Source of the DNA: a virus
UHGV virus genome: UHGV-0047541
Strand: one strand, 5' to 3'
DNA: 35,471 nucleotides
The notes below the pieces were generated by a model. That model did not search any database, was not told the DNA's origin, and was given only the letters and a program-made list of their open reading frames with translations. The stretch's first letter is position 1. Each line of letters begins with the position of its first letter. A program made the position numbers and the translations under genes. This document shows, piece after piece, positions 15,892 through 27,736 of the stretch.

Positions 15892-16389
15892 TCATTGTTG
15901 CCCCCACAAACAGACTTCACGCTCAATCTCACGACGAGTCATCAGACCTTTCCATTGCTTACCGCCAGCGTATGTCCAACGCCGTAGCTGATCACATGCG
16001 CCTTTGATATCGCCCTGGTTTATTTTGCGAAGAAGCGTAGATGTTCTGAAATTGCCAGCGCCCACGTTGTAAACGAACGAGTAAAGAGCGCCGCGCATTG
16101 TTTCCGGTATATCAACTTTGATGTACGGGTTAATTTGTCTGGCGACGGTGGCGAGGTCTTTATTCAGGAGGGCTTTGCATTCTGCTTCGGTATACGTTTT
16201 ACCGAGCATGATGTCTTTTCCGGTGTGTCCGTGGCATACAGTCCATACACCAACAATATCTTTGTATGGTATGTAACTGACACCTTCCAGACCATCGTCA
16301 CCACTCGGACCAGTGATTAACACAGATGCTATAGCAATAGCTCCGCCACCAATAGCAACAGCAACGGCTTTTCGTAATGATGGAGGCAT
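15892..16389 (-). CDS. R: SAR endolysin (T4-lysozyme-like, phage 21 R-type)
   Basis: 165 aa, [30 protein letters not shown] domain, then [25 protein letters not shown] catalytic region; matches recalled R21. Confidence 0.9.
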
Positions 16390-16604
16390 TATTCACCTCT
16401 CGCAGCCTTTCTTCTGTCTTCTCTGATTTTGAAGTACAGATTTGTCAGATAAGTCAGGAAGCCCAGAACCAGACTCCCCAGTACACCAATCGCAGCCCAC
16501 TGTGACGGACTGACCTGATCAAGCCACTGTAAAAACCAGTAGCCAGCACTGCCTGCGGAGGTGCCGTAGGCAATGCCCGTTGAAATTTTGTCCATGGATT
16601 TCAT
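16389..16604 (-). CDS. S: pinholin S21 (71-aa form with dual-start MKSMDK)
   Basis: ORF 16389-16661; functional start [28 protein letters not shown]... matches recalled phage 21 S; stop overlaps R start (TAATG). Confidence 0.85.
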
Positions 16605-16704
16605 AGCCTCACCTCCGCGCAGAACGGATGGCGTAGTTATTATGTGCAGGCTTTCAGACACATCAATCAGAGCCTTAATTGATATATATGCTGGAGACGA
16701 TGCA

Positions 16705-16735
16705 ATATAAAAAGCTCGCCGTAGCGAGCTAATAA
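16705..16735 (-). terminator. intrinsic terminator downstream of the lipoprotein moron (minus strand)
   Basis: Hairpin AGCTCGC-CGTA-GCGAGCT at 16713-16730, followed on the minus strand by TTTTATATT. Confidence 0.5.
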
Positions 16736-16855
16736 AATGTATATCTCTGAAATTATGTTTATTTGTATTAGCTCAGACTTGACATCACAGATTTCGTATA
16801 TAGAACATCATCAAATCTGTCAGTTTGCTATGAATGAGATATAGTAATTGAAGAG

Positions 16856-17251
16856 CTAACCTCGCATGTCAAAGCCAGATTTCTGAAAATCTCTGTAGAC
16901 TTCCGGATTGTTGAAGGCCGGAAATTTGGCTTTATGAGCTGCGGACTTTATCGCTTCGCAATAGGCTTTATCACCGTTACTGGTAGATATTTTTAAAGCC
17001 GTGCCATCCTGAGAGAATTCCATATGCAACCTGCATTTTTTCCCTTTCCAGTTATGTGGCTCATCAAGTTTGGCATTAATTGCAGCTCTGATTCCCCGCG
17101 CTTGCGCCCCCCATTCATCCTGATCATCCCAGCGTCCTGAACTGCAACTACCTGTAGCAGTAGTTTTGTGGCAATCTGAAGGGTGTAAAGGTGTGCATCC
17201 CGCAACAAAGCCGACCCAAAAAGTCAGCATAACGATTTTCTTTAATCCCAC
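16856..17251 (-). CDS. lipoprotein with TolA C-terminal domain III-like fold (divergent paralog)
   Basis: 131 aa; signal peptide plus lipobox VAGC; C-terminal KKCRLHMEFSQDGTALKIS...AYCEAIKSAAHKAKFPAFNNPEVYRDFQ aligns with TolA domain III (two conserved Cys, P..EVY..F). Confidence 0.7.
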   Translation of the reverse strand: MGLKKIVMLTFWVGFVAGCTPLHPSDCHKTTATGSCSSGRWDDQDEWGAQARGIRAAINAKLDEPHNWKGKKCRLHMEFSQDGTALKISTSNGDKAYCEAIKSAAHKAKFPAFNNPEVYRDFQKSGFDMRG

Positions 17252-17372
17252 TTCTTGCTCCCCAATCCATTAAAATCTCAGCAATAGTAGTTGTTACGTC
17301 CGCCACTGGCTCAGTGCCGTAGTTGTGTCAGAACAAACCTAAGCCGAAATCTTTATTACAAAACAATAAATA

Positions 17373-17801
17373 TCAGGGTTTAAAATCCAGCACCCCATTT
17401 TGAAATACTTTATATACTTCCGGCGAAGGGGGGGCAGGTATATCAGCATTCTTTATCGCATTCATCGCTTCACGACATAAATTGGGGTCTCCACTTTCTC
17501 TTTTAACCTCCAGTAGAAGGCCATTCGGGGCCATATGCATTCTAAGCGTACACTCTTTTCCTGAATACTTACTCGCATCCCCGAACTGTTTTTCGATGGC
17601 GTTCTTGATTTGATGGGCATACTGACGGATATCTTCACTAACATCAGTAGTACGTTCAGATGAACTCACATACTGTGTTTCTGTTGATTTATCGGAGTAA
17701 TATGATGCCCGGTCGTAATAATTTGTCGATACAGCATCAGTGCACCCGATAATAATCCCACTAATAATCAACGTAAGAATTGATGCGCTACGAAAACCCA
17801 T
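17373..17801 (-). CDS. lipoprotein with TolA C-terminal domain III homology
   Basis: 142 aa; lipobox IIGC; C-terminal IKNAIEKQFGDASKYSGKECTLRMHMAPNGLLLEVKRESGDPNLCREAMNAIKNADIPAPPSPEVYKVFQNGVLDFKP closely parallels recalled E. coli TolA C-terminus (...IKSAIESKF..AGKTCTLRIKLAPDGMLLDIKPEGGDPALCQAA...PKPPSQAVYEVFKNAPLDFKP). Confidence 0.8.
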   Translation of the reverse strand: MGFRSASILTLIISGIIIGCTDAVSTNYYDRASYYSDKSTETQYVSSSERTTDVSEDIRQYAHQIKNAIEKQFGDASKYSGKECTLRMHMAPNGLLLEVKRESGDPNLCREAMNAIKNADIPAPPSPEVYKVFQNGVLDFKP

Positions 17802-17880
17802 TTTTCCTCACAATATGTCATATAGTAATGGATTATATATACCGTCGTTTTGGACGCTCAAACAGCGAATCAGATCAAAT
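17802..17880 (-). promoter_or_regulatory. putative sigma70 promoter and RBS for lipoprotein gene
   Basis: Minus strand reads TTGAGC-(18 bp)-TATAAT about 25 bp upstream of GAGGAAAA-ATG. Confidence 0.35.
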
Positions 17881-18780
17881 AAAACGCACATTTGTTAACA
17901 TTTACACAAAGTCTGCGTGGGATATTCTGAAAGAATATCCATAATGTGGAGAGAATCTATTGAAGTGCATGGTGCCGGGTGCCTCCCGGTGAACAAAACG
18001 TTCGTGATACCTGTCGGCGACAGAAAAGGTTAATGGTATCACCCCACCGCACAGGGGGATTCACCATGCAGGAGTTTTCTTAGCAAACTCTCTGCGCGCC
18101 CGGCAATTCCCAACCACATAAAATGCGGAGTTTGTAGCATTTATGCATATAACTCGCAGGAATTATCTTAAAAAACTGATGTCGATCCGGATTAAAAAGA
18201 AGCAGGTCATCATCAGATGACTGGAAAAAAGGAAAACAAAAAATACTCATCGTACAGTTTTGATTGCAGGGATGAGCCTGCTATGCACAATATACAGAAT
18301 ATAAGCAAGATAAAAATATGCAGGCATATTATTTCGGATTTTGTTATTAACACAACCTTTTTAATAATCATTTGGCATACAATAAACCAGCCCAAAAAGA
18401 ACCGCCTAAACAGGCGGTTGGTCAATACAAAGGATGCTTCGTCTTTATTATAGTAATCTGAGGCGTCGGCCCCCCCGAAGTATTCCGCACTGCATGGATA
18501 CTGTGGTTTCCCGCTAAATCACTATGTAAACCACCCTCGCACTGAGGAACATCTTTTTAGTGTTATTTACAACACCGGGATAATGCATCATCGGCCCTGC
18601 CAGGAAATACAAAATCTCCACCGATAATGCACCATTCTGCTGCCGTAAAAAGATCAGCACTGAGGCTACACCCGGCCTCAAATAATAGCCAGAGAACAGA
18701 ATGCTTTTTCAAAACAACCAGCTCCCACGTAGTAAAAAAATACGCCAGTGCCGCAATACAATAAGGCTTGTTTCAAATGC

Positions 18781-18855
<75 letters not shown>

Positions 18856-18858
18856 ATA

Positions 18859-18934
<76 letters not shown>

Positions 18935-18936
18935 AC

Positions 18937-19013
18937 TGGACCGCCACCGGAGACTCGAACCTCGCACACTCAACTTAAAGGGTTGATGCTCTTCCCTGAT
19001 GAGCTAGTGGCGG
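18937..19013 (-). tRNA. atypical tRNA-like gene (anticodon loop CCUUUAA, putative UUU/Lys, C at position 33; possible pseudo-tRNA)
   Basis: 77 nt with 7-bp acceptor stem CCGCCAC/GTGGCGG, D and anticodon stems, TTCGAGT T-loop, encoded CCA; non-canonical C33 and T-stem mismatch. Confidence 0.5.
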
Positions 19014-19014
19014 T

Positions 19015-19090
19015 TGGTGGCCCTTGCTGGATTTGAACCAGCGACCTGGCGATTATGAGTCGCTCGCTCTCACCACTGAGCTAAAGGGCC
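19015..19090 (-). tRNA. tRNA with CAU anticodon (ileX/ileZ-like tRNA-Ile2, formally Met)
   Basis: 76 nt, GGCCCTTTAGCTCAGTGGTGAGAGCGAGCGACTCATAATCGCCAGGTCGCTGGTTCAAATCCAGCAAGGGCCACCA; close to recalled E. coli ileX. Confidence 0.8.
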
Positions 19091-19663: not shown

Positions 19664-20746
19664 ATGAAAAAATTAACAGTGGCAATTTCTGCTGTAGCTG
19701 CATCAGTACTGATGGCGATGTCTGCTCAGGCAGCTGAAATTTATAATAAAGACAGTAACAAGCTGGATCTGTACGGGAAAGTTAATGCTAAGCACTACTT
19801 CTCCTCTAATGATGCAGATGATGGCGATAAGACCTATGCCCGTCTTGGCTTCAAAGGTGAAACCCAAATCAACGATCAACTGACTGGTTTCGGTCAGTGG
19901 GAATATGAATTCAAAGGCAACCGCGCTGAATCTCAAGGTTCCTCCAAAGATAAAACCCGTCTTGCCTTCGCTGGCCTGAAATTCGGTGACTACGGCTCCA
20001 TCGATTATGGCCGTAACTACGGTGTAGCATACGATATTGGTGCATGGACCGACGTTCTGCCAGAATTCGGTGGCGATACCTGGACCCAAACAGATGTATT
20101 CATGACTGGTCGCACCACAGGTGTTGCAACATACCGTAACAAAGACTTCTTTGGCCTGGTAGATGGTCTGAACTTTGCTGCTCAGTATCAGGGTAAAAAT
20201 GACCGCACTGACGTAACTCAAGCTAATGGTGATGGTTTCGGTTTCTCCACTACTTATGAGTATGAAGGATTCGGCGTAGGTGCAACCTATGCTAAATCTG
20301 ACCGCACTAATAATCAGGTTATCTACGGTAACAACAGCCTGAATGCATCTGGTCAAAATGCTGAAGTATGGGCAGCTGGTCTGAAATATGATGCGAACAA
20401 CATCTATCTGGCTACTACCTATTCTGAAACCCAAAACATGACTGTTTTTGGTAAAAACCATATTGCCAACAAAGCACAAAACTTCGAAGTAGTTGCACAA
20501 TATCAGTTCGACTTCGGTCTGCGTCCGTCCGTTGCTTATCTACAATCTAAAGGAAAAGACTTGGGTGCTTGGGGTGATCAGGACCTGGTTGAATATATTG
20601 ATGTAGGTGCAACCTATTACTTCAACAAAAATATGTCCACTTTTGTTGACTACAAAATCAACCTGATTGATAAGAGCGATTTCACGAAAGTATCTGGCGT
20701 TGCTACCGATGATATCGTTGCTGTAGGTATGGTTTACCAGTTCTAA
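19664..20746 (+). CDS. OmpC/OmpF-family general porin (NmpC/Lc-like lysogenic-conversion porin)
   Basis: 360 aa, signal peptide [39 protein letters not shown]..., C-terminal MVYQF; AT-rich upstream region. Confidence 0.9.
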
Positions 20747-20934: not shown

Positions 20935-21333
20935 TTAATTAGAGTTATTAATAACGATATCCATCTCTAACCGGATATCTAATGCCATTAACATCCCTTC
21001 AATTATGCCCTCAGCCTTCTGTAACCTTTTCCCGATATAACCATCAGAGCAGCAATGCTTACCTGCCAGTGACATGAATGTCATACCGACTACATAATAA
21101 TCTACTAATAAATCGTGCAAATCGCTGTTGTTCTTTTTCAGACGGGCCATGCACCCGCAAATGATCATCGCGTCATCGTCACAACATTGCAGGCGAGATT
21201 TTACTTTTGAAGGAATTAATCCCTTAAAACCGGCGGCAATGGACGACCAGGTCACATCTTCATGATTATTAGCCGCCCACGCTCCCCAACGTTCAAGAAC
21301 CATCTGAATATCACGCATCAACTTACTCCACAA
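20935..21333 (-). CDS. late-gene antiterminator Q (QuuD/phage-82 type)
   Basis: 132 aa, ...[34 protein letters not shown]...CGCMARLKK...; position immediately upstream of the late region. Confidence 0.8.
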
Positions 21334-26588: not shown

Positions 26589-27736
26589 TTGCGCCCCCTT
26601 ACCTCTGAAGAGTTCAGCGACGAATGAATAAGACGGGCAAGAAATGCCGCATCGTTAATTCGGTCATACAGACTTACAGCCAGCGGTGATTCAGCTTTTT
26701 CCAGCATGGGATAAAGCTGCTGCAACCAGACCTGATGAATTGATGAAATGTAGGAATAGAGAACGCTGGCGTTATGTGCAACGTCGCTCGGTACAGAGGG
26801 CTTTGAAAGCTGTTTCTCCATCTGGTTAAAGGCATTGATGTATGCCTCTTTGAACTGGGCAGCACGTTTACCCGTGAAACCCATAGCAAGAAACGCAAAA
26901 CCGTCGCGTGTGATTTGGTAGCAAGGAAGTTTGCGACCTGTGCAATCAGTGTAATCACTCACCGAAAAATTGCGGGCAGTGAATGATGCTGAGCATTCAA
27001 GCGTGCGGATCTTTTTCAGTACATCGTCATGACGTTTAGAGAAGAAGTCAGCAACAGCCAAAGAAGATGTAACAGCCTGACCATCAACGATGGCAATTTC
27101 AGGTTGAGAGATGGTTGGGAGAGTAGTCATGGTGACAGCCCCGGTAGTCAGTTTTTTAGAAAACTCACCACATGGGACGCCAATCACAGAGGTGGTGAGA
27201 CGTACAGGGTTGGCGTTACCGGAGACTACCGAACCCGGCCCGACCGAAGTCGGCCCTGTACGCCCCACCATAATTTGGGCGTAGCAATGCTCATGACACG
27301 AAAAAACCGCATGAGCGCGGTTATGCTCAGTAATCAATTTCAGGACGCCAATCCCGGCACCCGCTTTATAAGGTGCCTGAACAGTGTAACGTCCCGGAAT
27401 GGCAGAATCAATGTGCTGGTGGTCCTTCACACTCAACAAAATCACGCCTGAATTTCCACAAAGGACTAAAGCACTCATGCGGGTAGTCTTTGCGAAGATA
27501 GATAACGCGCTGTGTTTCTGGCTCCCAACGAATAACATGGACATAAAGCCCTCTTCCGTCACGAAACCAGCGGTTAAGTTCCTGCACAACTCGCCCCCCA
27601 CAGTCAGGTAAAGTTCTCTGTGGTTACTTACAGCCAGGTGATTTGGTAATCTGCATTCATGCCGTAACAACAGGTGTTCAGCGACGCTGACCACCTGCTG
27701 TTGCGACAAACGGTTATTTGCCGTTAAACTGTTCAT
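26585..27736 (-). CDS. Rha-domain regulatory protein with about 200-aa N-terminal extension of unknown function
   Basis: 383 aa; residues about 205-300 IAIVDGQAVTSSLAVADFFSKRHDDVLKKIRTLE...YQITRDGFAFLAMGFTGKRAAQFKEAYINAFNQME are Rha-like; N-terminal 200 aa open in the same frame. Confidence 0.6.
   Translation of the reverse strand: MNSLTANNRLSQQQVVSVAEHLLLRHECRLPNHLAVSNHRELYLTVGGELCRNLTAGFVTEEGFMSMLFVGSQKHSALSIFAKTTRMSALVLCGNSGVILLSVKDHQHIDSAIPGRYTVQAPYKAGAGIGVLKLITEHNRAHAVFSCHEHCYAQIMVGRTGPTSVGPGSVVSGNANPVRLTTSVIGVPCGEFSKKLTTGAVTMTTLPTISQPEIAIVDGQAVTSSLAVADFFSKRHDDVLKKIRTLECSASFTARNFSVSDYTDCTGRKLPCYQITRDGFAFLAMGFTGKRAAQFKEAYINAFNQMEKQLSKPSVPSDVAHNASVLYSYISSIHQVWLQQLYPMLEKAESPLAVSLYDRINDAAFLARLIHSSLNSSEVRGRK

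Follow-up and report, generated by a model that had tools for sequence, protein, structure and literature searches.

The virus genome UHGV-0047541, a stretch of 35,471 nucleotides (nt) referred to here as the window, carries on its minus strand two adjacent genes, copy 1 and copy 2, for predicted lipoproteins of 142 and 131 amino acids (aa). Each protein is composed of a signal peptide with a lipobox, a short linker and a domain related to the C-terminal domain III of the cell envelope protein TolA (TolA-III). By domain content, both are members of the TolA C-terminal domain family and not of the TolA protein family. We see an even chance that the two proteins are motor-less TolA-III mimics tethered to the outer membrane, i.e. 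dead-end decoys for ligands that need host TolA-III (group A colicins and the g3p protein of filamentous phages). The coordinates of the genes, their parts and the surrounding features are collected in Table 1.

Both proteins match the Pfam family of TolA C-terminal domains, PF06519 (gathering score 25 bits), with 88.7 bits (E 3e-25) for copy 1 and 54.6 bits (E 1.3e-14) for copy 2. Residues 55–142 of copy 1 align without gaps to residues 334–421 of Escherichia coli TolA (E 3e-29; PDB 1s62, 3qdp and 1tol), 52 of the 88 positions being identical (59%), and residues 51–129 of copy 2 align to TolA 341–419 (E 5e-9), with 27 of 88 identical positions (31%) over the whole domain. The cysteine pair C363/C388 of E. 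coli TolA corresponds to C84/C109 in copy 1 and C73/C98 in copy 2, and these columns are invariant in alignments A1 to A3. Evidence for the fold comes from predicted models, which were built with AlphaFold from family alignments and have a predicted local distance difference test score (pLDDT) in the domain of ~90 for copy 1 and 80–94 for copy 2. In Foldseek searches of the PDB, the copy 1 model superposes on 2x9a_B with a template modelling (TM) score of 0.95 and a root-mean-square deviation of 0.7 Å, and the copy 2 model on 3qdp with a TM score of 0.87. The best PDB matches are all TolA-III structures, including complexes with g3p, with g3p of phage IF1 and with colicin A (ColA), and TonB C-terminal domains match far more weakly. 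The TolA-III observation of the initial annotation, made without database searches, is thus confirmed far beyond chance: the endings of copy 1 and TolA (...EVYKVFQNGVLDFKP and ...AVYEVFKNAPLDFKP) are exactly as it gave them, both cysteines are conserved as it said, and the profile search and structural superposition that it proposed as checks give significant matches and the TolA-III fold for both proteins.

Relative to TolA domain III (residues ~334–421; structures 1S62, 3QDP, 1TOL and 2X9A), the two domains share the Pfam family, the disulfide and the helix-strand-strand-helix-helix-strand order; copy 1 also retains an identical C-terminal LDFKP, whereas in copy 2 both ligand-binding edges are altered. 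The remainder of TolA is missing. Against the full-length TolA equivalog NF007065 the copies score 112 and 54 bits, under the cut-off of 213, and the match is restricted to model positions 292–386; copy 1 exceeds the cut-off of TIGR02794 (82.7 versus 59.45) on the C-terminal 100 positions alone, and copy 2 remains below it. Neither copy has TolA domain I, the transmembrane helix, or the long helical domain II, and with them the coupling to TolQR is absent; a lipoprotein signal and a disordered tether of 25–35 residues are found instead. Moreover, unlike tolA in the tol-pal operon, the window genes are prophage-borne: no tolQRA-tolB-pal setting was seen around the pair, the neighbours of which are phage Q, transfer RNA (tRNA), holin, lysozyme and Rz genes.

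As a lipoprotein signal we required a basic n-region, a hydrophobic core and an [LVI][ASTVI][GAS]C lipobox located 15–35 residues from the start. Both proteins contain such a signal (R4...IIGC20 in copy 1, K4K5...VAGC19 in copy 2), and their N-termini, as read from the sequence, are MGFRSASILTLIISGIIIGC followed by TD and MGLKKIVMLTFWVGFVAGC followed by TP. The two minus-strand open reading frames (ORFs) and their IIGC and VAGC signal peptides with Thr at position +2 are therefore as initially annotated, with a basic n-region in addition. The start of copy 2 is secure, because an in-frame TAA lies six codons 5' of the GTG and a GGAG precedes it by 6 nt. Both proteins belong to phrog_5772, for which the PHROG function entry reads unknown. 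The lipobox is kept by all full-length members of the copy 1 family, including a 65–73% identical subfamily, and by 111 of 120 representatives of the copy 2 family, and in both families the remainder of the signal peptide is variable. The +2 rule alone (Thr, not Asp) suggests that both predicted lipoproteins are sorted to the outer membrane. The linkers are modelled with low confidence (pLDDT <50 for residues 13–50 of copy 1). In copy 2, the linker loop CHKTTATGSC and the acidic stretch SSGRWDDQDEWG are almost invariant between genera and recognisable in more distant relatives, so that this linker appears to be more than a plain spacer. We considered whether SSGRWDDQDEWG mimics the TolB box of colicins, which has the core DG(S/T)GWSSE with essential Asp, Ser/Thr, Trp and Glu (PMC2821528). 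When the two are aligned on Trp, Ser and Gly occupy the essential Asp and Ser/Thr positions, and this candidate was rejected.

Partners of TolA-III bind by β-strand augmentation. The C-terminal strand β3 (A415–K420) is the edge for the TolB N-terminus, for colicin N and for g3p-N1 of Ff and IF1 phages, and colicin A uses β2 (L375–P380) plus K368, K379 and K396 (PMC7391070, PMC3365938, PMC4339652). Copy 1 has LLEVKR at the colicin A site, where TolA has LLDIKP, and retains K379, K396 and the LDFKP of β3. Among 39 diverse short relatives β3 (L-D-F-K-P) is conserved and β2 is the most variable strand. If the proteins are decoys, each precursor would be exported and receive its lipid at Cys20 in copy 1 and at Cys19 in copy 2, and the linker, predicted to be disordered, would let the disulfide-bonded domain hang into the periplasm. 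Because domain I, the TolQR-binding helix, and domain II are missing, no proton-motive force can be transmitted. The sheet edges for strand augmentation would still be presented, β3 by both proteins and the β2 colicin A edge by copy 1 only, and a colicin translocation domain or g3p under the outer membrane would be captured by the decoy and not by energised TolA; import would then stall and the prophage host become tolerant. Expression in the lysogen could proceed from a promoter-like site and terminator of the pair's own, with late read-through by Q-modified polymerase. Since TolB binds TolA-III weakly (dissociation constant, Kd, 40–200 µM; PMC7391070), a moderate quantity of decoy might suffice to capture invaders that bind more tightly, while Tol-Pal stays functional.

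Periplasmic TolAIII produced in the laboratory is the functional precedent for such a decoy. In the 1993 work of Levengood-Freyermuth in the Webster laboratory it is reported to give tolerance to group A colicins. Export of TolAIII to the E. coli periplasm also makes cells leaky (PMC6195910). The laboratory constructs (Levengood-Freyermuth, Click and Webster 1993; Wan and Baneyx 1998; used in PMC6195910) are likewise free, un-energised TolA-III, but they are soluble, host-identical and over-produced, whereas the window proteins are diverged, predicted to be lipid-anchored and presumably present at low level. Llp of phage T5 and Cor of phages phi80, N15 and HK022 are also small phage lipoproteins, located in the inner leaflet of the outer membrane. 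By plugging the outer-membrane receptor FhuA, they shield an infected cell or a lysogen against colicin M and additional phages. The window proteins have no sequence relation to Llp or Cor, and, instead of blocking a receptor, would mimic a periplasmic host hub and thereby absorb the invader.

The two copies represent separate lineages. Identity between them is only 28%, copy 1 resembles host TolA more closely than it does copy 2, and the lineages differ in distribution, which rules out a recent tandem duplication. Of the tandem paralogous pair described initially, the adjacency stands, but close paralogy or local duplication does not, and 'tandem paralogues' overstates the relatedness because of the low identity and the different lineages. 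Nor does the description as prophage lipoproteins hold for the family, since plasmids and chromosomal islets carry the copy 2 lineage. Copy 1 and its homologues form 46 clusters, found only in E. coli and Shigella; in E. coli, copy 1 was encountered on prophages only. The sub-type of the window has 93–94% identical homologues in 38 IMG/VR prophage loci, always in tandem with copy 2 and with the holin at a fixed 198 nt downstream, while endolysin and Rz types vary; all IMG/VR pair loci that a contig end does not interrupt have the two ORFs at full length. The second sub-type (65–69% identical) stands alone in prophages resembling those that carry Shiga toxin (Stx), in the order Q, tRNA-Ile, tRNA-Arg, gene, nanS-p, holin, which is the position of stx. 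Of 5,426 complete E. coli genomes, 769 carry the pair, which is also kept in Rac-like prophage remnants; for the single sub-type there are DNA matches in 136 genomes, just 17 of which cover at least 80% of the query. Among 50,697 GenBank phage records a homologue was found in mEp460_ev081 only, and the BFVD viral structures gave no match at E ≤ 1e-3. The 142-aa protein is named 'tolA: cell envelope integrity protein TolA' by the Prokaryotic Genome Annotation Pipeline (PGAP), and in E. coli strain VE-T2 (NZ_AP027960.1; locus L001, 6700-7134, minus strand) the copy 1 gene is called a partial tolA pseudogene 'missing N-terminus'. The flagged ORF is intact at 142 aa, and we therefore reject the pseudogene assignment. 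As such a label yields no protein record, the family is hidden from protein databases, and over-annotation by PGAP probably explains in part why these genes drew no attention.

The copy 2 lineage is wider, with 368 homologous clusters in Citrobacter, Enterobacter, Klebsiella, Raoultella, Serratia and Shigella. It occurs as single-gene chromosomal islets with differing neighbourhoods in Enterobacter, Serratia, Citrobacter and Klebsiella oxytoca, and ~600 plasmids carry it with a protein identity of 88%. In conjugative plasmids of the IncK2/Z (MPF_I) kind, the copy 2-type gene closely follows the relaxase gene, with a hairpin between the two, and adjoins trbABC; on pO157 it persists together with a relic of that relaxase gene. 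The ratio of nonsynonymous to synonymous substitution rates (dN/dS) is 0.04–0.13 for the mature part of copy 2 at dS 0.5–1.1 (between elements and genera), compared with 0.2–0.37 for the copy 1 domain and a more relaxed 0.27–0.50 for the copy 1 linker. Low dN/dS and conserved lipoboxes together mean that both genes are functional and not debris. Furthermore, 130–170 nt of non-coding DNA 5' of the copy 2-type genes are conserved in chromosomal islets of four genera (loci L003, L007, L096, L099 and L082), and the proximal ~45 nt of this DNA are also found in the window (17252-17372) and in IncK plasmids. The copy 2-type gene thus moves as a cassette with its own 5' region, which may contain a regulatory element. 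A sigma-E-type promoter upstream of these cassettes was considered and dismissed, as its spacing, judged by eye, does not fit. In the Serratia islet (L007, 5957-7736) the copy 2-type gene adjoins GmrSD_N and HEPN-domain genes, a neighbourhood resembling a defence island.

A profile search of 1.84 billion representative proteins identified 603 relatives. Among the best 150 of these, 94 are no longer than 190 aa, 60 of the 94 with a lipobox, and a few have ordinary signal peptides. Relatives with retrievable contigs lie on Col-type plasmids, adjoining Tol-dependent bacteriocins. One is found beside an immunity-like gene and a pore-forming colicin with the ColA TolB box GDGTGWSSERG and a ColA_N domain, another beside a DNase bacteriocin and its immunity gene, and yet another beside a lysozyme-like protein and a ColE1-type relaxase. 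On the Klebsiella ColRNAI plasmid NZ_CP044260.1 (locus L111, 9206-9939), a 123-aa lipoprotein accompanies a cloacin-like operon, and its TolA-III gene is immediately followed by a gene for a 121-aa TonB_C-domain protein with a signal peptide (E 9e-11); relatives of this TolA-III gene matched 721 plasmid records, 657 of them from Klebsiella. On Col plasmids the TolA-III gene and the bacteriocin-lysis operon are divergently oriented. On mobilisable Col plasmids and an IncF plasmid, a gene for an Exc2-family lipoprotein (NF033828, E 6e-38) is located directly 5' of the TolA-III gene (L109, 3804-4701; L105, 2828-3727; L110, 888-1751; L112, 5526-6420), and the signal peptides of the two adjacent products are nearly alike (..LPLV.FIPLFLAAC), which suggests a shared signal-peptide module. 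The TolA-III lipoproteins of Col plasmids (NZ_CP044260; L103, L105 and L109) resemble the window proteins in the lipobox, the short linker, the TolA-III ending LDF(K/R)P and their mobility, but are just 20–30% identical to them and are encoded beside bacteriocin, immunity and lysis genes and Exc2-family lipoproteins. A 'TolA protein' has merely been noted on a cloacin-like plasmid, and the same published comparison gives the TolA gene as absent from CloDF13, which was thereby rejected as a characterised carrier (PMC10269471). The ciprofloxacin-induced CP-933O gene EDL933_2012, linked to TolA in a paper, was also set aside: according to the supplement it is a tail fibre gene ~30 genes downstream of Q, at another locus.

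In the window, the pair occupies the interval between Q and the holin, as the initial annotation had it, in the order Q, four tRNAs, the pair, P21-type holin, lysozyme and Rz. The annotation's further remark that Stx phages carry stx at this locus agrees with the single gene related to copy 1, which takes that place in a prophage of Shiga toxin-producing E. coli. In related prophages, the slot between Q/tRNAs and holin contains the gene pair, the single gene with nanS-p, or other cargo. This late-operon slot, downstream of Q and tRNAs and upstream of the holin, is that of the conversion genes stx1 and stx2 in Stx phages (bor and lom lie elsewhere in lambda), but here the cargo is an envelope-protein mimic, unlike a toxin or adhesin. 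The same late-region slot has a further cargo gene that alters the cell surface, the porin gene located between Q and the tRNA cluster. The fraction of guanine plus cytosine is 0.37–0.47 over 16600-17950, compared with 0.49–0.53 in the lysis genes. The hairpin 3' of copy 2 (-17.8 kcal/mol; z-score -3.6; all 200 shuffled sequences fold less well) is convincing as a terminator-like element at the sequence level. The promoter-like site 5' of copy 1 is kept in the pair-type loci L017 and L001, in each case as a consensus-level match only; with this reservation for the promoter, the predicted architecture is as expected of a late-operon accessory cassette.

The STnc100-type element, which resembles a small RNA (sRNA), lies ~110 nt 5' of copy 1 and has an equivalent position in other pair-type loci. 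It appears to be a flanking repeat of the slot, and its link to the gene pair is putative; it was also considered as a candidate for the leader RNA of the late promoter. In Stx-like prophages such an element is found directly 3' of the single TolA-III gene, with four further copies spaced ~260–270 nt apart before nanS-p (L101, 8585-8797 and 10557-11536; L066, 4536-7487; L056, 4599-4863), and a match to AsxR, the anti-stx2 sRNA, adjoins one of the copies. These repeats flanking the slot cargo may be recombination substrates or terminator modules. Two observations concern other parts of the window. The lysozyme encoded in the holin-lysozyme stretch (15892-16661, minus strand) has a Gly/Ala-rich hydrophobic N-terminal segment, typical of signal-arrest-release endolysins. 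At 27188-27376 (minus strand), adjacent matches to C4 antisense RNA and isrK indicate a P1/P7-type antirepressor control region in the prophage.

Table 1. Features of the TolA-III gene pair and its surroundings in the 35,471-nt window
Feature	Position	Strand	Description
Copy 1, TolA-III lipoprotein gene	17373..17801	-	142 aa; ATG start; GAGG Shine-Dalgarno 4-5 nt upstream
Copy 1 signal peptide, aa 1-19, and lipobox IIGC	17742..17801	-	Cys20 at 17742-17744; Thr +2, Asp +3; sequence reading
Copy 1 linker, aa 21-54	17640..17741	-	Ser/Thr/Tyr-rich; predicted disordered
Copy 1 TolA-III domain, aa 55-142	17376..17639	-	disulfide Cys84/Cys109; C-terminal strand VLDFKP
Copy 2, TolA-III lipoprotein gene	16856..17251	-	131 aa; GTG start; GGAG Shine-Dalgarno 6 nt upstream
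Copy 2 signal peptide, aa 1-18, and lipobox VAGC	17195..17251	-	Cys19 at 17195-17197; Thr +2; sequence reading
Copy 2 linker, aa 20-43	17123..17194	-	Cys27-x8-Cys36 loop and acidic Trp-rich stretch SSGRWDDQDEWG; low AlphaFold confidence (<50)
Copy 2 TolA-III domain, aa 44-131	16859..17122	-	disulfide Cys73/Cys98; C-terminal strand GFDMRG
Late antiterminator Q gene	20935..21333	-	Pfam PF06530, E 2.6e-53
Gram-negative porin gene, complete	19664-20746	+	Porin_1, E 9e-153; between Q and tRNA cluster
tRNA cluster Met, Lys, Thr, Gly	18781..19090	-	ARAGORN and Rfam; upstream of cassette
Terminator-like hairpin	18400..18419	-	terminator scan; between tRNAs and STnc100-like element
STnc100-type sRNA-like element	17913..18099	-	Rfam RF02076, 87.3 bits (gathering score 47)
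Promoter-like site TTGAGC-18-TATAAT	17832..17861	-	consensus scan 10/12; ~30 nt 5' of copy 1
Intrinsic-terminator-like hairpin	16703..16730	-	AGCUCGC-UACG-GCGAGCU then UUUUUAUAUU; terminator scan; between copy 2 and holin
P21-type holin gene	16389..16661	-	Pfam PF04971; start ~195 nt downstream of copy 2; followed by lysozyme and Rz genes

The decoy reading, which the initial annotation had already offered as plausible, gains indirect support from carriage of the family on IncK2/Z conjugative plasmids and next to Tol-dependent bacteriocin operons, a genomic context that points to protection against import. The TonB_C partner beside a bacteriocin operon, in particular, is easily explained by interference with import and hard to explain by lysis. 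Several observations weigh against this reading. The colicin A site of copy 2 reads ALKIST, all three cation-π lysines are lost and the protein ends in FDMRG; the differing edges of the two copies are consistent with the different binding partners that the initial annotation suggested. In the TolA-III lipoprotein encoded beside the ColA-like colicin, the residues that bind ColA are not conserved either (VISATA; K368 replaced by T). Chromosomal islets found outside any plasmid context argue against a role directed at filamentous phages alone, and the location directly 5' of the holin is just as compatible with late expression and a role in lysis. Promoter consensus matches are not in excess over the region, so that the site upstream of copy 1 counts as a consensus match only. 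In addition, a PADLOC search for defence systems gave no match, and full-text searches of the literature yielded no study of function, be it binding, localisation, expression or phenotype, for any member of the family. Tentatively, and at somewhat short of an even chance, the idea can be extended to mobile elements of enterobacteria in general. These would widely carry 'translocon decoys', i.e. lipid-anchored or secreted C-terminal domains of TolA and, on some Col plasmids, of TonB, which would confer broad tolerance to Tol- and Ton-dependent bacteriocins and pilus-specific filamentous phages; the window pair would represent two decoys with different ligand edges, and roughly one in four complete E. 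coli genomes, with pO157 among the carriers, would contain this layer of defence, which labels such as 'tolA' or tolA pseudogene have kept out of sight.

The main rival to the decoy reading, although in our view unlikely, is a loosening of the envelope for release. Motor-less TolA-III produced late under Q would titrate the TolB N-terminus from energised TolA, Tol-Pal function would drop and the outer membrane weaken, resulting in faster or more complete lysis or more release of vesicles or toxin and, near colicin operons, in colicin release. The genes indeed lie directly upstream of the holin within the late operon, and the pair and the holin travel as a unit of fixed spacing while endolysin and Rz types change; yet a terminator-like hairpin stands between pair and holin, and a spanin gene (Rz) is already there. 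Relatives adjoin bacteriocin operons that contain lysis genes, but the Col-plasmid gene is outside the bacteriocin-lysis operon and divergent from it, and for the TonB_C partner of the Klebsiella Col plasmid a part in lysis is not obvious. The TolB-binding strand β3 is the best conserved edge of the family and over-production of periplasmic TolAIII makes E. coli leaky (PMC6195910), although the weak affinity of TolB for TolA (PMC7391070) implies that high protein levels would be needed. Finally, the copy 2 lineage resides in backbones of conjugative plasmids and in single-gene chromosomal islets with no lysis genes nearby, and the perturbation of Tol-Pal at lysis that the initial annotation had offered as one possibility is a poor fit with these homes. 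A Bor- or Lom-like modulator of the lysogen's envelope has a somewhat smaller probability still. Such a protein would bind TolB or other partners and alter Pal mobilisation, vesiculation, serum or bile resistance or O-antigen display, with a benefit to the host that does not involve invaders. The lysogenic-conversion-type cassette in a slot where related prophages have stx and other conversion genes, the presence of the family on the virulence plasmid pO157, the retention of the pair in Rac-like remnants and the strong purifying selection would all agree with this. However, the data indicate no specific partner or phenotype, and the repeated association with Tol-dependent bacteriocin operons and TonB_C points to import systems and not to general envelope fitness.

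It is improbable that the proteins are entry-exclusion or conjugation-related lipoproteins that act with plasmid transfer or exclusion functions, their carriage by a prophage being incidental. This would account for the relatives located immediately after the relaxase gene and beside trbABC on IncK/Z plasmids, as well as for those directly 3' of an Exc2-family gene with a near-identical signal peptide on Col plasmids and an IncF plasmid. However, the window genes are in a prophage and other relatives in chromosomal islets without transfer genes, a hairpin parts the plasmid gene from the relaxase gene, and neither window protein matches the Exc2 model NF033828. We also know of no established role for TolA in conjugative DNA entry, which counts against such a function. 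The least probable explanation, already largely refuted, is that the genes are non-functional relics of captured tolA 3' ends, as implied by the PGAP label 'tolA, incomplete, missing N-terminus'. Copy 1 is flagged in this way in VE-T2, and many truncated copy 1 variants exist in the protein database, but the flagged ORF is intact, conserved lipoboxes are grafted onto the domain in both genes, dN/dS is far below 1 at high dS, and no uncut IMG/VR pair locus has an interrupted ORF.

If the TolA-III lipoproteins are decoys, they would constitute a natural and common counter-measure to group A colicins and Ff/IF1-type phages that acts at the translocation step and not at the receptor or the target. 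This would bear on the interpretation of sensitivity to colicins and phages in clinical and commensal E. coli, as well as on attempts to employ bacteriocins, or filamentous or pilus-specific phages, as antimicrobials. For researchers of Tol-Pal, the family would provide natural, diverged TolA-III variants that separate the binding edges. Moreover, the pair would represent a second kind of cargo, besides Shiga toxin, in the stx slot.

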